Virus record (IMG/VR): IMGVR_UViG_3300044648_000427
Origin: a virus
Direction: 5' to 3' (one strand)
Length of the DNA: 25,982 nucleotides
This document shows positions 3,426-16,784 of the stretch, in pieces. The translations under genes and the position numbers were made by a program. The notes below the pieces were generated by a model, which saw nothing but the letters and a program-made list of their open reading frames with translations, searched no databases and was not told where the DNA came from. How positions within the stretch are numbered: the stretch's first letter is position 1; each line of letters begins with the position of its first letter.

Positions 3426-3710
3426 AATACCTTTAAATATTTGACGTTCTTCACCATAAGCATCTATAACTTCTCCTAATTTTCTATAAAGATCAGAAGC
3501 TTCTTCTATATCAAGTTTAATAATTACATTCCAAAACCCTTTAGTATCATTTTCTATTTCATTTAGTGCAATAGTAATTAATTCTTCCTTACTAAGATTT
3601 CCTGTTTTTATATCTTGACCCACATAATAATTTTGAAGATTGATACTTATATTTGATGTTAAAATTGGAAATTTCTTGTTAAACTTTTGTAGATAATATT
3701 CAAATTTCAT
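3399..3710 (-). CDS. Hypothetical protein
   Basis: ORF track 3399..3818; the more plausible start is MKFEYY at 3710, which avoids overlap with the + gene at 3750. Confidence 0.55.
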   Translation of the reverse strand: MKFEYYLQKFNKKFPILTSNISINLQNYYVGQDIKTGNLSKEELITIALNEIENDTKGFWNVIIKLDIEEASDLYRKLGEVIDAYGEERQIFKGILPSDHIKP

Positions 3711-3749: not shown

Positions 3750-4055
3750 ATGGAAGAAGAAGCTAATAAAGCTGAAGAATATCGTGAACAACTTAACCAA
3801 CGTAATAGTGAAATTCAAATTCTCAATGGTGTAATAGAACAGTTAAAGATCAATATTTTAGAATTAGAAAGCAAAAATAAAAAATTAGAAGAAGAGAACG
3901 AACGACTTGTTCAAAATAGTGATAATTGGGTTAAACAATATAATCTTACAATGGATTTAATATATCGAGGGGTGTTTAATTTAATGAATGTTTATACCAA
4001 TCGGAGACTTAGTCCGGTAGGAGTAGAAGATGCTTCCAGTTTTGGTAGCATGTAG
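3750..4055 (+). CDS. Coiled-coil protein
   Basis: Heptad, E/K/N-rich 101 aa. Confidence 0.65.
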   Translation: MEEEANKAEEYREQLNQRNSEIQILNGVIEQLKINILELESKNKKLEEENERLVQNSDNWVKQYNLTMDLIYRGVFNLMNVYTNRRLSPVGVEDASSFGSM

Positions 4056-4671
4056 TACATTTAACGATAAAGACAACATCAAAAGACATCTACTTTCAAT
4101 TCCCCAATATGTTCATCAATTAACGATTGATGGACGATATAAAGATTTTGATCATCCTTCCGATTTATCAGATGATGGAACACGGGAAATTGTAAATATG
4201 CATTTCAATTCCTTACTTATTGATGCAGGTGGATTATCTGAAATTGAAAAACGTCAGATATATTTTGATAGATTTAATCCCATAAATTATAAATTTCTAG
4301 TAGTTGCAGATTCAGATGAGTATTTCGCTGGAGATTGGCAAGAGTTCATTTGTGAACTTGATAATTTATACGAAAAATATTATACTATTGATCAACCTGT
4401 TTGTATTGGAATAAAAGTTCATAATCCCCCTACGGAAGAATTCGATCCACGGCCTAGAATTTGGATTAATGCTCATAATGTTAAAATGGGGCCAAAACAT
4501 AATCAATTTAGAAACAAGTTAGATAATTCATTATTACATTTTTCAGATGAAGTAAAATCCATGAAATTGAAGCATGATTATAGGTTACGATATCCATCAT
4601 ACAACAATCTTAGACTACTTTATCAAAGTAGGCTTATATCTGAGGAAGATAAAATTCATAGTCCTTTTTAA
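4030..4671 (+). CDS. GT-A fold (GT2-like) glycosyltransferase
   Basis: IDGRY...SDDGT-R and hydrophobic strand + ADSDE (DxD) motifs. Confidence 0.75.
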   Translation: MLPVLVACSTFNDKDNIKRHLLSIPQYVHQLTIDGRYKDFDHPSDLSDDGTREIVNMHFNSLLIDAGGLSEIEKRQIYFDRFNPINYKFLVVADSDEYFAGDWQEFICELDNLYEKYYTIDQPVCIGIKVHNPPTEEFDPRPRIWINAHNVKMGPKHNQFRNKLDNSLLHFSDEVKSMKLKHDYRLRYPSYNNLRLLYQSRLISEEDKIHSPF

Positions 4672-4693
4672 TTTAATAAGCAATCTGCTTTTA

Positions 4694-4927
4694 ATGATTG
4701 AGAAAGAAGTAGTGTTTGAAGATAAAGACAAACGCAAAGCTACTATATTTTATATTAAAGGTGACACTCCAAAAGATTTTTTTGAACAGGCTAAACAACT
4801 AGAAGACGAATTAAAAGCAAATACGAATATTGATCTAAAGATTAATTACGATATTATGGTATTTGATCTTAAAGATATTAATAAAATAGAACCTAGCAGA
4901 ACTCATAATATGGCTGGAATGCAGTAA
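4694..4927 (+). CDS. Hypothetical protein
   Basis: ORF track 4574..4927; likely start MIEKEVV at 4694, after the GT stop. Confidence 0.55.
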   Translation: MIEKEVVFEDKDKRKATIFYIKGDTPKDFFEQAKQLEDELKANTNIDLKINYDIMVFDLKDINKIEPSRTHNMAGMQ

Positions 4928-4945
4928 GAGAAAGTTACCTTTCTC
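4928..4945. terminator. Perfect 7-bp hairpin immediately after a stop codon (terminator or 3' end of a minus-strand RNA)
   Basis: GAGAAAG-TTAC-CTTTCTC. Confidence 0.4.
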
Positions 4946-5170
4946 CCACCTTGCTATACCCTTTTCCCACTATAGAATCAGATTTTGGATGCATTTATCT
5001 ATAGATGTATGCAGTATAACATACAGAAATTATATAATAAATAGTATTTAAACCTTTTGGTGTATTAGTGTACTGAACTACAATTTCGTTATTCCTTATT
5101 GCATTTTTTGGCATTTAACTACACTTAAAAATCACAAACTTTAATAAGGCCCACATCTAATGATCTATAC

Positions 5171-5288
5171 GCTTCGCCATAGGATTAAACCTGCCGAAGA
5201 TGGGTTTTATCCGTTTTACTGAGAAAACGGAAACCGGCGGCTGCAACGGTATAGTAAATCCCTCCTAGGACGGGGCAGCCATATTTTT
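5171..5288 (+). ncRNA. Structured ~115-nt ncRNA, family unknown
   Basis: TTTAATAA at 5140, GC-rich island starting at G5171, three hairpins, T5 at 5284-5288, no start codon at the TSS. Confidence 0.6.
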
Positions 5289-5381
5289 GGGTTTAAACCC
5301 ACAAACATAACAAGTTATACCTTTTTCATCTATAATCCATATACCATAATTACATCTAATACAAAAATCAGGGGTATTCAA
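5265..5381 (-). CDS. Zn-ribbon microprotein (38 aa)
   Basis: TTG start coupled to the upstream stop; CIRC...CYVCG; not in the ORF track. Confidence 0.6.
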   Translation of the reverse strand: MNTPDFCIRCNYGIWIIDEKGITCYVCGFKPKNMAAPS

Positions 5382-5683
5382 TTATGATCACAAGTTCCAC
5401 ATGCACAAAGTTTACTTAATTTGTTTTTCTTTTTCCTTTTATATTTATTTCTATTAAAAACTTTAGTATCAACTTTTTTAGCTCTAGTATGTTGTCTTGC
5501 AAAATATAATTCCATTTTCCAAATCCTTCTATTACAGGTTCGTTTATGAGAGAAAACTTTCTTATCCCTCCCAAAAGGTTTAGTAGGATCATATTCATCA
5601 ATAGTCAATTCATATCCTACATATCTATCATGCCATCTGATTGGTTTATCACAAATATAGCAGATTTTTTTACTCATCATCAA
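5378..5683 (-). CDS. Basic Zn-finger protein
   Basis: CYIC...HKRTC and C-terminal CACGTC. Confidence 0.65.
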   Translation of the reverse strand: MMMSKKICYICDKPIRWHDRYVGYELTIDEYDPTKPFGRDKKVFSHKRTCNRRIWKMELYFARQHTRAKKVDTKVFNRNKYKRKKKNKLSKLCACGTCDHN

Positions 5684-5888
5684 TCACAGCTAAATGCAAA
5701 CCCATCCAATCATTATAATCATCCTTTGACTTAAAATCTTTTGGTGATACACTAACATATTTCCTAAGAAAAGATTTATGTTCATCACACATCTTATCTA
5801 CATATAATTTTGTCATATCATTATTTTTTATATGGTATTTACATTCACAATATTTATTTATTACTCTCCGTTTAAGGCTTTTTCCCAT
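5670..5888 (-). CDS. Small CxC...CxxH protein
   Basis: CEC...MCDEH; within a coupled operon. Confidence 0.6.
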   Translation of the reverse strand: MGKSLKRRVINKYCECKYHIKNNDMTKLYVDKMCDEHKSFLRKYVSVSPKDFKSKDDYNDWMGLHLAVIDDE

Positions 5889-6133
5889 TTTTCCTCTAAA
5901 ACCTTCAAAGTATCAAATTGTAAATCATGTTTATTCGTATCATAATGCCCATTCGCTATATCATTAACCCATACTGATACAAGCATCATAGCCATATTAA
6001 ATCCATGTTTAAAGTCATCGCTTTCTGCCTTTATAACTCCACGTACAAACGGTCTATGGTTATCCGTATGAATTTTCGTTGCGAGCCAAAGGTCAAAGCG
6101 TCTAAGAACTTCCTGTTCCTCTTTAGTTACCAT
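5861..6133 (-). CDS. Hypothetical protein
   Basis: ORF track; coupled operon. Confidence 0.6.
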   Translation of the reverse strand: MVTKEEQEVLRRFDLWLATKIHTDNHRPFVRGVIKAESDDFKHGFNMAMMLVSVWVNDIANGHYDTNKHDLQFDTLKVLEEKWEKALNGE

Positions 6134-6239
6134 AATCGAAATCTCCTAACTTTCTACCACAAAAATAGCATTCCATTCCGTTAGCACGGGGTACATATGT
6201 ATGAGATCCTTCTTTGCAATATTTATTTTCTTCTTTCAT
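6123..6239 (-). CDS. Zn-binding microprotein (38 aa)
   Basis: MKEENKYCKEGSHTY...ECYFCGRK; ATGA overlap with the upstream gene; not in the ORF track. Confidence 0.6.
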   Translation of the reverse strand: MKEENKYCKEGSHTYVPRANGMECYFCGRKLGDFDYGN

Positions 6240-6751
6240 TGTAATATCCCCATATATTTTTTAATATTTGAAAATACATAATCTAAAGCTTTCATGTAAT
6301 CATCTAAAGTTTCATCAAAAACAGAATTATTAAATTTTGGATATTTTTTAACTCTATTTTGAAGTATTTCAAGTAATGTCCTTTCTGTATATGCACGCAA
6401 ATCTTCAGATTCTTTTACCCATTCATCTAGTTCTTCATTATAATATTCTATAGGACTATGTGGTTGCATTTTCTGTTTAATATACCCAAGTTTATCTGTT
6501 ATTTCTTCGAATTTTATCTTTGTTCCACATTCAGTACAGAATTTCATCAAAACTATATGATTAGTGGGTTTATATATTTTCATTAATTGCAACTGTTTAT
6601 CCTTTTCTGCTATTTCTACAGTATAATCATTAAAGTTATATAAATTATCCATAAACTTACAACATGGTTTAAATTCTACTATATGATGAAAAGCAAATTG
6701 TTTAGTTTTCGGATCATCTTTTGTATACTTTATAATAGTCATACTAACCAA
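6236..6751 (-). CDS. Hypothetical protein with CC..M / FCxxCG Zn domain
   Basis: PCCKFM...KFCTECGTKI. Confidence 0.65.
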   Translation of the reverse strand: MVSMTIIKYTKDDPKTKQFAFHHIVEFKPCCKFMDNLYNFNDYTVEIAEKDKQLQLMKIYKPTNHIVLMKFCTECGTKIKFEEITDKLGYIKQKMQPHSPIEYYNEELDEWVKESEDLRAYTERTLLEILQNRVKKYPKFNNSVFDETLDDYMKALDYVFSNIKKYMGILQ

Positions 6752-8618: not shown

Positions 8619-8869
8619 TTTGAATCACCTACCAATTTATTAGAACAGGGAATACAACAATCCATTTTACGTCCACGAATCCTTTCAGTATAATATATTT
8701 TTACATTTTTACCACAATTTTCACATCTAATAGAATCTATTTTATATTTTCTTATAGTTTTCACTAATTTCAATCTAATTTTTTGAATATCATAATCCTT
8801 TATATCATATAAAACTTCATTCAACAAATCTGCATCACTTTCTGATAGACTTAACTTTAGTCTGGTCAT
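8615..8869 (-). CDS. Protein with C-terminal Zn finger
   Basis: CENCGKNVKIYY...GRKMDCCIPC; TATA ~30 nt upstream. Confidence 0.7.
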   Translation of the reverse strand: MTRLKLSLSESDADLLNEVLYDIKDYDIQKIRLKLVKTIRKYKIDSIRCENCGKNVKIYYTERIRGRKMDCCIPCSNKLVGDSK

Positions 8870-8947
8870 AAAAAATATATCTTCTCTATATATTTAAGCT
8901 TTGTTATTTACGATAATCTTTATTAAAGGGTCAATCAAACTAAAATT

Positions 8948-9134: not shown

Positions 9135-9308
9135 ATGAAAGATTCATCATGTTCTTGCAAGGGCAAAGATGTAGTTCTAAGACCATTTAAGGTTAGTAAA
9201 AGTCGTACGCTTCTCGTTTGCACCCGTTGTGATGGTTTAGTAGCTGAATGGCTTGATAAGGTTTATCCACCTGACAAAAACTTTACAAATCTAGAAGACT
9301 TAACTTAG
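9135..9308 (+). CDS. Zn-ribbon microprotein (57 aa)
   Basis: MKDSSCSC...LVCTRCDG; not in the ORF track. Confidence 0.6.
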   Translation: MKDSSCSCKGKDVVLRPFKVSKSRTLLVCTRCDGLVAEWLDKVYPPDKNFTNLEDLT

Positions 9309-9447: not shown

Positions 9448-9816
9448 TCACAGTTTATTTTCTTTAATTATTTTATCCAATTTGGAATTAATATCATCTA
9501 AATCAAATCCATCTGCCCAAACATAAACATCATTCAAGTCTAGTTCAAACCCCTTTAATGTAGTTTCTGTAACGGTATTAGGTATTTCGTCATTTTCTGC
9601 ATCCCAATCTGCATCATTACAGGAACATCCAGAATCAAATACATAGCCGATTTTTCCATCCTTCGTTATTCCAACAAAATTTGCATCCCATTCATAATTT
9701 TCCCATCTATAAGAGTTTACTAAAGGGATCATATTTCTTCCGCCAAAATCAATTTTATTTACATTAGCTAATACAATTTCTAGTTTATTTTTTATCTCAT
9801 CCGTTAAATTTAGCAT
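9448..9816 (-). CDS. Acidic hypothetical protein with DSGCSC motif
   Basis: YEWD...DGKIGYVFDSGCSC, a pattern I recall from small viral proteins; TATA 30 nt upstream. Confidence 0.7.
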   Translation of the reverse strand: MLNLTDEIKNKLEIVLANVNKIDFGGRNMIPLVNSYRWENYEWDANFVGITKDGKIGYVFDSGCSCNDADWDAENDEIPNTVTETTLKGFELDLNDVYVWADGFDLDDINSKLDKIIKENKL

Positions 9817-9835
9817 AAAAAAGTAAGGTCTTTTG

Positions 9836-10126: not shown

Positions 10127-10288
10127 GTGGACAAAGTAATAATCGCAAATTGTATAATGATTCTTCTTATAGGTTCATTATTTGTATCAACTAAAAGATA
10201 TAAAGATTACTGCGTACCTATTTGTATGATTGGTGTATCATTAATTCTCGTTTTGTTACTTTTCAACCTTTTTGGAATCTACGGGTGA
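10127..10288 (+). CDS. 2-TM membrane microprotein (53 aa)
   Basis: GTG exactly 30 nt after TTTATATT (10097); MDKVIIANCIMILLIGSLFVSTKRYKDYCVPICMIGVSLILVLLLFNLFGIYG; not in the ORF track. Confidence 0.65.
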   Translation: MDKVIIANCIMILLIGSLFVSTKRYKDYCVPICMIGVSLILVLLLFNLFGIYG

Positions 10289-10474
10289 ATCATAACACTT
10301 ACTACAATAATGTTTTCTACTGTACATATCCATGTATATTTCAGGTGGAATTGCTTTTGTCGTAGAAGTTGAAATACCTTTAATTGGAGTTACTTCATAA
10401 TAAACTATACCATCATTCCTTATTTCGTCTACCCTTTTTTTACATATATCACAAAATATTCTTCTTTCTTCCAT
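10256..10474 (-). CDS. Zn-finger protein
   Basis: IFCDICKK...HYCSKC; CTTAAATA at 10503. Confidence 0.7.
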   Translation of the reverse strand: MEERRIFCDICKKRVDEIRNDGIVYYEVTPIKGISTSTTKAIPPEIYMDMYSRKHYCSKCYDSPVDSKKVEK

Positions 10475-10506
10475 AAAAAAACAAACACATACAAATATTT
10501 AAGGAG

Positions 10507-10576
10507 TACTGTAGCCACATCAGTCTTCCCATTCAATCCCCGCTTATTAGCTAGACAGGATCGGTAGAGTTCGGCT
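10507..10576 (-). ncRNA. Candidate ~65-70-nt rod-like sRNA
   Basis: CTTAAATA at 10605(-), no start codon at +30; AGCCG/UGGCU end pairing, GAUCC/GGAUU and GCU-AAUA-AGC stems. Confidence 0.5.
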
Positions 10577-10611
10577 AAAATATATTAAATTAATCACTAT
10601 TTAAGTATTAA

Positions 10612-10683
10612 AAACGTGGCTACATCCCACGCCACGCATGAGAACACAACGAAACAGCGAAAAACAGAAACGCTATGGGATGC
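10612..10683 (-). ncRNA. Candidate ~70-nt sRNA with terminal stem and 3' AGCCA
   Basis: TTTATATA at 10714(-); GCAUCCCA/UGGGAUGU stem starting at the predicted TSS; T5 terminator. Confidence 0.55.
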
Positions 10684-10760
10684 AATATTAATATAAGTAA
10701 AAATGTTATATAAATGTTTCCATAATTCATATAGAGTAAAAAAGGTTAATAACTTATTTA

Positions 10761-10829
10761 ATGAGTGATCCAGATTCCGAACCTATTAATATTGAAGATG
10801 TAGAAGTAGAAGATGTTGAAGGAGAATAA
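10761..10829 (+). CDS. 22-aa acidic micropeptide
   Basis: MSDPDSEPINIEDVEVEDVEGE; T5 after the stop; not in the ORF track. Confidence 0.5.
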   Translation: MSDPDSEPINIEDVEVEDVEGE

Positions 10830-10943
10830 ATTTTTATCAACTAATTACTTCAACAAGTTTTTATTTAAACTTTACTGAATTTTTGTATAGTAATACTGGA
10901 TTTTTAATAAATGTAAAAAATGGCTCTCTCCCGCCGTATAAAA

Positions 10944-11076
10944 CAAATAGTTGTATACTCAGGATAGTATTTAAACCTTTTTGTTGAATTTAAAATTTTT
11001 ACTTTTTCTTAGTTTTTGATTTTGATGTAGGCATGTCGCAAATAGTAATATTCTCAGGGATCTATTTAAACCCTTT
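10944..11076 (-). repeat. Duplicated 38-bp promoter unit (10944-10981 and 11039-11076)
   Basis: 30/38 identical by manual alignment, covering BRE-TATA through the TSS. Confidence 0.75.
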
Positions 11077-11120
11077 GGTTCAGGTAAAGGTTTAAATATG
11101 AAACAATAACAATTATTAAT

Positions 11121-11318
11121 ATGGTAGACGTAATAATACTGTTACTAGGTGCTGCTATATATAATATTGTTCTTGGTTTTGGAACATTAGGTTTCGCTTA
11201 TGGAGCTTTTGTAAGTTTTAGAGAAGAAGATAGGTTTGAAGGGATATTATGTACTATAGTTTTTGTGGTACTTTTGTTAACATGGATACTAATAAATTAT
11301 CTATTCTTTAGGAGTTAA
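11121..11318 (+). CDS. 2-TM membrane microprotein
   Basis: AAAGG-TTTAAATA at 11091, ATG 30 nt later. Confidence 0.7.
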   Translation: MVDVIILLLGAAIYNIVLGFGTLGFAYGAFVSFREEDRFEGILCTIVFVVLLLTWILINYLFFRS

Positions 11319-11320
11319 AA

Positions 11321-11509
11321 ATGATAGATTTAATATTATTACTCCTGATCAATATTACAAGTGCTTTAGGGTTATATTGGGTTATTAGGGTGATATATGA
11401 TTCCCCTACTAATGCTATACGTATAACATTCCTTATCCTTATTACTATTATGATAATATCTATTGTACTAGTTAACTATATGGTACTAGATCTACATTAC
11501 CATTATTAG
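11321..11509 (+). CDS. 2-TM membrane microprotein
   Basis: Two hydrophobic helices; same layout and similar start (MIDLILLLL vs MVDVIILLL) as its neighbour. Confidence 0.65.
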   Translation: MIDLILLLLINITSALGLYWVIRVIYDSPTNAIRITFLILITIMIISIVLVNYMVLDLHYHY

Positions 11510-11519
11510 TATATTATAT

Positions 11520-11735
11520 TATTTACCGTTATAACATTAGTACGTTATTAGTAATTGGCCGTTGTACGTTATATGTACATGTACATCGGCCGGAAACGGC
11601 CGGGTAATGTGAGCGAAGCGAACATATAGAGTTTTGTTTTGAACGGATATATAACAACCCCTCCGGGGTTAGACCTGCAAGACAGGATCTCTGATTTCTG
11701 ATATATAAACATTTTAACCCTATTTCCCCCATTAA
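11520..11735. other. Palindrome/hairpin-dense non-coding locus; candidate replication origin
   Basis: ATGTACATGTACAT, CGGCCG-GAAA-CGGCCG, GCGAAGC, AACCCC-TCC-GGGGTT and CCTG-N5-CAGG near the switch of coding strand. Confidence 0.5.
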
Positions 11736-13841: not shown

Positions 13842-14138
13842 ATGAGTGAAGAATTTCAATTCGATAAAAATCTTGTTAAACTTATTCAAGGATTAGGTCA
13901 ACACAAAAATAGATTAATAATTTTAGAAGGGATAATTAATATTGGTAAAGATGAAGTTACTATGAAAGAGCTTCAAGAAAATACTAATTATAATATTACC
14001 GAAATACATAAACAATTACAGGAATTGGTTTCAAGTGGAATAGTTACACGGGCTGGAATGGATGAAAAAGATCCTACACGTTATACGATTTCTCCACTTG
14101 GTAGAAAATTACTTCAGGCATTAAATACTGTGATTTAA
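13842..14138 (+). CDS. Winged-helix (ArsR-like) transcription regulator
   Basis: LGQHKNRLIIL...TMKELQE...IHKQLQELVSSGIV...YTISPLG; own TATA at 13812. Confidence 0.8.
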   Translation: MSEEFQFDKNLVKLIQGLGQHKNRLIILEGIINIGKDEVTMKELQENTNYNITEIHKQLQELVSSGIVTRAGMDEKDPTRYTISPLGRKLLQALNTVI

Positions 14139-16367: not shown

Positions 16368-16400
16368 ACCTTTAAATATAATATAGACGCTCTCTTATTC

Positions 16401-16784
16401 TTGGTACTAATAACTAGAATAGGTATAATAGGTTCACGTAGTAGAGATTCTAATGATGATTTTAAGAAAACGTTAAAGGCTTTTTCAGACTTGATACAAA
16501 AATATCATGCTGAAGAAGGTGAAATAATGATTATTTCTGGAGGGGCGAAAAAGGGTGGAGATAGATTTGCTGAAATTATTGCTGATCAATTTGCTTGCCA
16601 TAAAACAATTTATTATCCACAATATAGACTTTATGGTAAGATTGCACCGATTGTAAGAAATACCCAAATAGCCAAGTTTTCTGATGCTCTTATAGCTTGT
16701 TGGGATAATAAGAGTGCAGGAACGGACAACGCTATCAAGACATTTAAGACTTTTCATCCGTTAGCTGACTTAATTGTTGTTTGA
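16401..16784 (+). CDS. SLOG-superfamily (YspA/DprA-like) protein
   Basis: IGIIGSR, IISGGAKKGGD..AE, APIVRN..IA, SAGT motifs; TATA at 16371. Confidence 0.8.
   Translation: MVLITRIGIIGSRSRDSNDDFKKTLKAFSDLIQKYHAEEGEIMIISGGAKKGGDRFAEIIADQFACHKTIYYPQYRLYGKIAPIVRNTQIAKFSDALIACWDNKSAGTDNAIKTFKTFHPLADLIVV

Follow-up and report, generated by a model that had tools for sequence, protein, structure and literature searches.

Phage T7 has three strong, co-oriented early promoters in tandem, A1, A2 and A3, which give one common long transcript and have no terminators between them. In T4-type phages, composite promoter/terminator motifs known as PeSLs are repeated in a variable region, and indels between related phages are edged by these motifs; PeSLs combine bacterial sigma-70 early promoters with stem-loop terminators and flank protein genes (PMC2839356; PMC4122927). 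Phage PhiTE carries pseudo-ToxI, a viral small RNA homologous to the host small RNA of a toxin-antitoxin-type locus, where RNA mimicry serves as counter-defence; ToxI itself is a tandem 36-nt repeat that is processed by its partner toxin ToxN (PMC3475682). For the archaeal virus SSV1, antisense and small RNAs were mapped by sequencing, and one of them was antisense to a small gene (bioRxiv 10.64898/2026.06.17.732947).

The locus described here lies in a viral DNA of 25,982 nucleotides (IMG/VR record IMGVR_UViG_3300044648_000427), the whole of which is referred to as the window. The window is AT-rich (31% GC) and packed with very small genes, and a gap of 645 bp (10475-11120) separates two diverging gene blocks. 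The gap contains five promoter boxes that all point along the minus strand and are not followed by a gene, called orphan boxes in the following (P1 to P5), and a sixth box (P6) that leads to a 72-aa gene. The short bodies behind the orphan boxes are numbered as units 1 to 5, and units 4 and 5 are also named RNA1 and RNA2. The sole viral relative in the comparison was the syntenic 61-kb sequence Ga0307411_10000024, designated L003.

The closest described organisation is the PeSL cassette of T4-type phages. In L003, +1/+2 of unit 3 is the starting point of a 92-nt insertion, and a 65-aa gene that was gained or lost adjoins an inverted promoter copy, which may resemble the PeSL pattern; the possible likeness comprises this one indel edge and this one gene gain or loss, in one relative. 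Unlike PeSLs, the units described here have archaeal BRE/TATA boxes and oligo-T runs, most of the bodies are non-coding, and P1 and P2 form the one clear repeat pair. Several strong co-oriented promoters stand at the head of a presumably early gene block, as in the A1-A3 region of T7, whereas here an oligo-T run follows units 2-5 (T4 after unit 1) and one of the bodies is an independent RNA gene in cells. SSV1 has BRE/TATA promoters too, and unit 3 shows the same antisense-over-small-gene layout; however, the SSV1 transcripts are scattered antisense RNAs known from sequencing, whereas the five co-oriented stand-alone units in tandem are predicted from DNA. The parallel with pseudo-ToxI lies in RNA2, a virus-borne small RNA homologous to a host-encoded one that has a MazE/AbrB-type gene upstream in the host. 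In contrast to ToxI, RNA2 consists of one 70-nt hairpin and the host locus revealed no toxin partner, so that any role in defence would be hypothetical. A narrow literature search yielded no description of a small RNA shared between virus and host in archaea.

Promoter boxes and oligo-T runs of the gap

The leftward gene block opens with a 72-aa zinc-finger-like gene (10256..10474, minus strand; ATG at 10474) as its first normal gene. The protein shows 79% amino-acid identity in L003, third codon positions being the most variable, and has three close homologues (P0019-P0021, 75-86% identical) in the protein collection, where its own cluster also includes a contig of 165 kb; no copy of the gene was found in the genome contig collection. 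The rightward block opens with a 65-aa membrane gene (11121-11318, plus strand). Its divergent promoter box at 11091..11098 (plus strand) scores 11.5 bits and repeats the sequence of the P2 box in inverted orientation. A scan for bacterial-type promoters and terminators gave nothing special, as expected since the signals are archaeal, and ARAGORN detected 0 tRNA genes in the window.

A preliminary description of this DNA had placed six minus-strand boxes at 11070, 10975, 10869, 10714, 10605 and 10503, and all of them were found at these positions. The box core was TTTAAATA at 11070, 10975 and 10869, TTTATATA at 10714, and CTTAAATA at 10605 and 10503, each on the minus strand. The same description held that boxes elsewhere in the window stand about 30 nt before an ATG and that, within the gap, only the one at 10503 feeds a normal gene. 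Both points agreed with our results: a TTTAAATA-like box was located 28-31 nt upstream of the start codon in most of 20 genes, indicating that the messages of the window are leaderless or nearly leaderless, and the box at 10503 is the single one followed by a normal gene, the 72-aa gene with its ATG at 10474.

A promoter position matrix was trained on 20 other gene promoters of the window, none of them from 10475-11120. With this matrix the boxes at 10975, 10869, 10714 and 10503 scored 10.6, 12.0, 11.6 and 9.8 bits, respectively. The box at 11070 reached 4.5 bits, with a perfect core in atypical flanks, and the box at 10605, which is weak and has no purine-rich upstream part, scored -0.9 bits. 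On the minus strand of 10475-11120 there were four hits of at least 8 bits, compared with a mean of 0.44 in 2000 dinucleotide shuffles, none of which reached four. Hits of at least 10 bits numbered three, compared with 0.05 in the shuffles. An equal density of TATA-like boxes with BRE in shuffled sequence, named in the preliminary description as the outcome that would speak against the array, was thus not what was observed; the density was well above that of the shuffles.

The individual boxes lie on the minus strand at 11063..11077 (P1), 10968..10982 (P2), 10862..10876 (P3), 10707..10721 (P4), 10598..10605 (P5) and 10496-10503 (P6). P1 joins its core to a purine-rich upstream part and is kept in L003, as is P5, and P3 is identical in L003 at 37 of 38 positions. 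A TTG is found exactly at +29..+31 of the orphan boxes at 11070, 10975, 10869 and 10714, where genes have their ATG. The background chance of a TTG at this fixed offset is 0.021, and the probability of finding it in four of five boxes is about 1e-6. A pyrimidine-purine initiator at a fixed distance is seen as TTG in four orphan units, as ATG at +29 for the 72-aa gene and as TA at unit 5, the 5' ends being predicted. Each unit would start about 31 nt after the first T of its box, either at the G of the conserved TTG or at A10576 in unit 5, with predicted transcript starts at G11039, 10944, G10838, G10683 and A10576 for units 1 to 5, respectively. The arrangement corresponds to that of archaeal BRE/TATA core promoters (an A/T-rich box and a purine-rich upstream element, 26-31 nt before the start), the box at 10605 being a weak example. 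When P1 and P2 were each taken with 30 downstream nt, they formed a 55-nt direct repeat with 73% identity, and the motif CTGAGWATA between box and start was common to both. No iterons were found beyond this pair.

On the minus strand, T-runs of 5-7 close units 2-5 at 10920-10915 (T6), 10743-10738 (T6), 10614-10610 (T5) and 10481-10475 (T7), all of which have the length of an archaeal oligo-T terminator (at least five T). The T7 lies between P6 and the start of the 72-aa gene. Unit 1 ends in T4 only, which is T5 in L003. Runs of six or more T occur three times in the 645 nt, compared with 0.41 per kb on the sense strand of genes, and are about ten times denser in the gap. These results support tandem units composed of a promoter, a short body and an oligo-T run, and not chance AT-rich sequence. 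The array is well supported as a sequence feature, and RNA products are predicted from it.

Conservation and coding status of units 1 to 4

L003 has 79-93% DNA identity to the window along most of its length. The entire gap could be aligned, and all six boxes as well as all four TTG triplets are kept in L003. From 10475 to 11080 the two viruses are 90.9% identical, whereas the four-fold degenerate sites of 38 conserved genes are 78.3% identical (binomial p ~1e-16). In the same genes, identity was 79.3% at third, 89.8% at first and 93.4% at second codon positions. The gap thus evolves as slowly as first codon positions and has been subject to purifying selection, as judged from the sole relative. 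The spacers between the units are as conserved as the bodies and boxes, and this uniform conservation cannot, on its own, separate RNA genes from a DNA-level control region.

Gain and loss of cassettes between related viruses had been anticipated in the preliminary description, and the unit content was indeed found to differ exactly at a predicted transcript start. The insertion in L003 (L003:9545-9636), which is GC-richer and foldable, leaves the promoter of unit 3 in place, since it begins at +1/+2, and alters or extends the body that would be transcribed. It also provides an ATG for the minus-strand frame of unit 3. The 65-aa gene is missing from L003 together with its promoter; its first codons resemble those of the next gene, suggesting duplication or recombination at this place. 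No relative of the virus was detected in IMG/VR by protein queries or DNA patterns. Two IMG/VR loci carry a 39% identical methyltransferase and otherwise have nothing in common with the window, and no match to the window was found in the phage and plasmid collections.

Unit 1 (10990..11039, minus strand) has an A-rich, unstructured body with an 11-aa basic ORF at 11034..10999. It is identical to L003 at 47 of 49 positions, and the single change within the ORF is synonymous; with only two changes in 49 nt, one of them in the ORF, a coding test has no power. Unit 1 may encode the 11-aa peptide and serve as a micro-mRNA.

The body of unit 2 (10915..10944, minus strand) corresponds to a predicted RNA of about 28 nt, in which a 3-bp hairpin is followed by the T6. 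Four substitutions were found in L003. Two of them constitute one compensatory pair (C-G to U-A) and one is located in the hairpin loop; the remaining substitution is structure-neutral only when the stem is extended by eye past the 3 pairs given by the tool. A 24-aa frame starting at the TTG is open in both viruses, with 4 non-synonymous changes versus 1 synonymous change in L003, and this frame contains the T6.

Unit 3 (10738..10838, minus strand) contains a 28-aa Ser/Thr-rich ORF (10754-10840, minus strand) whose TTG start coincides with the predicted transcript start and which precedes the T6 at 10743-10738. Over the same unit runs an acidic 22-aa ORF (10761-10829, plus strand), which has an ATG and no good box at the right distance. 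The third codon positions of the two ORFs coincide and 4 of the 5 substitutions fall there (p ~0.045), indicating that unit 3 probably yields a peptide from one of its strands, the pattern being equally compatible with either. The TTG frame is reduced to 7 aa in L003. When unit 3 was compared with type I toxin-antitoxin systems, the antisense layout was present, but the plus-strand peptide is strongly acidic and not hydrophobic as such a system would have it.

Unit 4, or RNA1 (10610..10683, minus strand), is about 74 nt long. Its 5' end and 3' part pair in an 11-bp helix, a CCA is present in the 3' tail before the T5, and a further T5 lies internally at 10664-10660. RNA1 folds better than shuffled sequences (z -2.3). 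A 36-aa hydrophobic ORF over RNA1 (10620-10730) was rejected as a gene since a 5-nt indel shifts its frame in L003, and the 21-aa frame from the TTG is shifted likewise, indicating that RNA1 is not a conserved protein and is non-coding. The indel and three substitutions are located in a hairpin loop, and through two A-to-G changes U-A pairs become U-G pairs, so that the predicted fold is undisturbed by all 5 substitutions and the indel; with one viral relative, covariation in RNA1, as in unit 2, is that of two sequences. In the host genomes there was no credible match to RNA1, units 1-3, the L003 insertion or a hairpin cluster at 11525-11700, and the hits obtained were AT- or T-rich and of low complexity.

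The small elements noted in the preliminary description, namely the 11-aa ORF, the unit of about 30 nt and the acidic plus-strand 22-aa ORF, were all present. Its characterisation of the bodies as mostly non-coding can be retained in part. A non-coding status is supported for units 2, 4 and 5 at least, whereas the third-position pattern of unit 3 and the possible micro-mRNA of unit 1 point the other way.

RNA2 and its homologues in Nitrososphaeraceae

Unit 5 has as its core the 70-nt RNA2 (10510-10579, minus strand), in which a terminal stem, an asymmetric internal loop, a long helix and a small hairpin were recognised. Ammonia-oxidiser genomes were reached via an amoA primer scan, and RNA1 and RNA2 were searched in 238 genomes of the family of a Nitrososphaeraceae MAG. 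Window positions 10515-10574 gave a 60-nt match with 90% identity (E ~4e-17) in two of the 238 genomes, G180 (contig 7) and G232 (contig 221). RNA2 is the sole DNA common to 20 kb of the virus and these two genomes. The two host contigs have 35% GC and share 97.8% identity over 4 kb. Ordinary cellular genes on them, for a sugar epimerase and a large surface protein, are accompanied by genes of mobile or addiction type, including those for an IS240-type transposase, a SWIM protein, a MazE/AbrB-type 51-aa protein and a DUF3800-like protein. On these contigs RNA2 comes directly after the MazE/AbrB gene, with a convergent gene opposite. Its core is preceded at 39 nt by a box that reaches 11.4 bits when scored with the matrix trained on the virus, and is followed by a T6, which is the grammar seen in the virus.

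The homology between virus and host ends at the terminal stem, and this stem pairs in both lineages with different letters. In the 70-column alignment there are 21 pairs, 5 of which changed on both sides, and 95% of the cells are paired compared with 28-47% when the partners are slid. Several G-U pairs are compatible with RNA of the minus strand only. The invariant parts are the asymmetric internal loop, with GAAC opposite AAGACUGAUGU, and the small hairpin. The energy of RNA2 is unremarkable (z -0.4 to -1.3). Of the two RNAs first described as GC-enriched and structured, RNA1 is confirmed by its folding energy, whereas RNA2 is not by energy alone. On the evidence of homology and covariation, RNA2 is a genuine structured RNA with homologues in genomes of the host family.

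With a covariance model of RNA2, no paralogue was detected in the window or in L003, and the model recovered no further member when 151 relatives of G180 and a class sample of 151 genomes were searched. The outcome was likewise negative for BLAST against an order sample of 401 genomes, for pattern scans of IMG/VR, and for the phage and plasmid collections. The genomes searched included G005 and G136, which are flagged as unpublished and on which none of the conclusions depends. The occurrence of RNA2 in just two genomes across these searches indicates a sporadic RNA that is not of the housekeeping kind and is probably associated with a mobile element.

A comparison with Rfam, by which the preliminary description had proposed to examine the RNAs, gave no match anywhere in the window at E values up to 1, and narrow scans gave chance-level hits only, far below gathering scores. 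Several known RNA classes were also considered and rejected. For a C/D-box guide RNA, inspection by eye located CUGAUG on the 3' strand only, and a C box was missing from the 5' end. For an H/ACA guide RNA, the ACA after the stem reads ACC in L003, and no Rfam guide-RNA model matched. K-turn and hammerhead readings were tried by eye and none fitted. An RNA antitoxin of a type III (ToxIN-like) toxin-antitoxin system did not agree with the single copy of RNA2 in both virus and host, where the neighbours are MazE/AbrB-type and DUF3800-like genes and no ToxN-type gene is present. When all units were compared by BLAST with the 238 Nitrososphaeraceae genomes for mimics of CRISPR repeats, there were at most 3 weak AT-rich hits per genome among the 2-3 candidates scored, none of them array-like. 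A 10-mer common to RNA2 and a unit at 11709, and the words ATCC(C)TGAG, occurred at or near chance level.

Proposed reading of the array and alternatives

Taken as a whole, we consider it moderately probable that the gap is a conserved array of five short, separately promoted units, including an RNA2 that also occurs in Nitrososphaeraceae genomes. Host RNA polymerase would read the units leftward from ordinary archaeal BRE/TATA promoters and would stop at the oligo-T run in units 2-5, unit 1 having its T4 only. The predicted non-coding products are the RNA of unit 2 (about 28 nt, with a small hairpin), RNA1 (about 74 nt) and RNA2 (about 70-100 nt), and units 1 and 3 would probably give micro-mRNAs or antisense RNA over a micro-gene. 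At P4 and P6 a T-run lies between the box and its own start and would stop transcripts from upstream, and five independent products, not one leader, would result; the T7 before the 72-aa gene would likewise halt transcripts arriving from unit 5. RNA2 would have come to be shared by the virus and Nitrososphaeraceae genomes through horizontal transfer, and via its invariant loops it most likely interacts with the host factor bound by the cellular copy. Should both RNAs engage one partner through these loops, the infecting virus would provide a host small RNA or out-compete it. A more specific reading, in which the array is a battery of takeover RNAs and RNA2 is the hijacked small RNA of a MazE-linked mobile defence or addiction module neutralised by the viral copy, appears to us decidedly unlikely. 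The early timing and the roles as decoys, sponges or anti-defence RNAs put forward in the preliminary description are hypothetical.

The main alternative at the level of transcription is a cis-acting early control region, in which tandem promoters serve the leftward operon after the manner of A1-A3 in phage T7, the oligo-T runs are leaky attenuators and the short RNAs are by-products of a leader; regulation would depend on read-through, or on a repressor that binds the repeated CTGAGWATA site. Such a region would sit, as the gap does, between diverging gene blocks; four strong boxes within 230 nt, the uniform conservation that includes the spacers and the 55-nt promoter repeat of P1 and P2 with its common motif between box and start are in agreement with it, and T5-T6 runs are reported to be only partial terminators in archaea (PMC8716108). 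However, the host RNA2 is a stand-alone unit of box, RNA and T6 facing a convergent gene, the homology of RNA2 is confined to the RNA body with covarying stems, and in the virus the 72-aa gene is served by a box of its own and has the T7 directly before its start. A control region is considered unlikely. It could also be argued that the units are missed protein genes and not RNAs, that is, leaderless micro-genes of 10/11, 24, 28 and 21 aa starting at UUG or AUG. The TTG stands exactly where leaderless genes have ATG, and TTG is likewise the start codon of a conserved 127-aa gene (16401), 30 nt downstream of a strong box; the open 24-aa frame of unit 2 in both viruses and the third-position bias of substitutions in unit 3 are in line with this view. 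Very improbable it nevertheless seems to us, since unit 4 is frameshifted and the TTG frame of unit 3 truncated in L003, and the frame of unit 2 runs through the T6 and carries four changes at its N-terminal end, none of them synonymous.

Two further explanations would make the segment a DNA element. A replication origin or other DNA-level element, in which the promoters prime or open the origin (cf. the T7 primary origin and T4 R-loop origins) and the GC-richer pieces are protein-binding DNA, would suit the cumulative GC skew minimum at about 10-11 kb and the repeated and inverted promoter copies. But the skew follows gene orientation across the window and so singles out no origin, iterons are limited to the P1/P2 pair, and the G-U pairs and compensatory changes of RNA2 fit one RNA strand only, which makes this explanation highly improbable. 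As for an attachment site, the RNA2 segment would be the viral copy of a host small-RNA gene used for site-specific integration, as tRNA genes are. The 60-nt 90% match to chromosomes of the host family, the only DNA match in 20 kb, and the location of the host copy beside an IS240-type transposase and toxin-antitoxin-like genes speak for this. Against it, Pfam revealed no integrase among 30 scanned ORFs (53-709 aa) of the 165-kb genome, the RNA is complete in the virus and has a box of its own, the stems are not identical but show compensatory differences, and the two host contigs give no sign of a flanking prophage. We regard an attachment site as scarcely probable.

To our knowledge, almost nothing is known about the non-coding RNAs of archaeal viruses, and nothing about those of viruses of ammonia-oxidising archaea; we know of no virus of this kind that can yet be cultivated with these hosts. 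Read as separately promoted units, the array provides five predicted transcripts with base-exact start sites. RNA2 represents a new structured RNA family present in both virus and host-family genomes, by which the question of whether archaeal viruses borrow host small RNAs becomes directly testable, and the DNA shared through RNA2 links the virus to low-GC Nitrososphaeraceae as likely hosts. If the reading of RNA2 as a takeover RNA directed at a MazE-linked module were true, archaea would have yielded their first case of RNA-based counter-defence and their first small-RNA family shared between virus and host.

Promoter boxes, pre-start T-runs and a candidate regulator

The strongest archaeal BRE/TATA promoter box in the window (13812) precedes the gene of a 98-aa protein (13842-14138, plus strand) with weak winged-helix and DnaD-N-like matches. 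This protein may be a regulator of the promoters in this part of the window. Three additional boxes without a start codon at the correct distance were located at 3432 (plus strand), 11709 (minus strand) and 19622 (plus strand), each scoring above 10 bits with a matrix trained on 20 gene promoters of the window. The box at 11709 is directed into a GC-rich hairpin cluster (11525-11700), for which no credible match was found among 238 Nitrososphaeraceae genomes.

At several gene promoters, T6-T7 runs separate the box from the start codon, which they directly precede (8869-8880, 9816-9826 and 10475-10481, minus strand). Such a run would serve as a built-in insulator, with incoming transcripts ending just upstream of the gene's own start.

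RNA1-RNA2 complementarity and the host locus of the RNA2 homologue

The 3' part of RNA1 (10614-10624, minus strand) and the 3' strand of the terminal stem of RNA2 (10510-10518, minus strand), two predicted small RNAs of the gap array, are perfectly complementary over 9 nt. In L003, a 61-kb contig of a viral relative (Ga0307411_10000024), 8 of the 9 pairs are kept and one is now G-U. The complementarity could be due to chance, or it could reflect an RNA1-RNA2 duplex competing with RNA2's own stem.

The RNA2 homologue on a Nitrososphaeraceae genome contig (L137, G180:C7) is surrounded by a host locus (4025-6658) with a DUF3800-like gene and a MazE/AbrB-type gene that stands alone, no toxin being visible. 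The locus also codes for a SWIM protein, an IS240-type transposase and a membrane protein of 177 aa that weakly matches PycTM (Pycsar effector; E 4e-6). It resembles a small island of variable or defence type.

Gene differences from L003 and a possible UUG start

A 65-aa membrane gene (11121-11318, plus strand) is missing in L003 together with its own promoter. Its first ~28 bases are similar to the beginning of the downstream 62-aa gene (11321-11509). As a result, a single L003 segment (9238-9265) matches the starts of both genes. The comparison points to either a tandem duplication or a deletion through recombination between the gene starts.

A conserved 127-aa gene (16401-16784, plus strand) shows clear third-position variation compared with L003, and its apparent TTG start is located exactly 30 nt downstream of a strong box, both lying within 16371-16403 (plus strand). 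If the gene truly starts at this TTG, leaderless UUG starts may occur in the virus.
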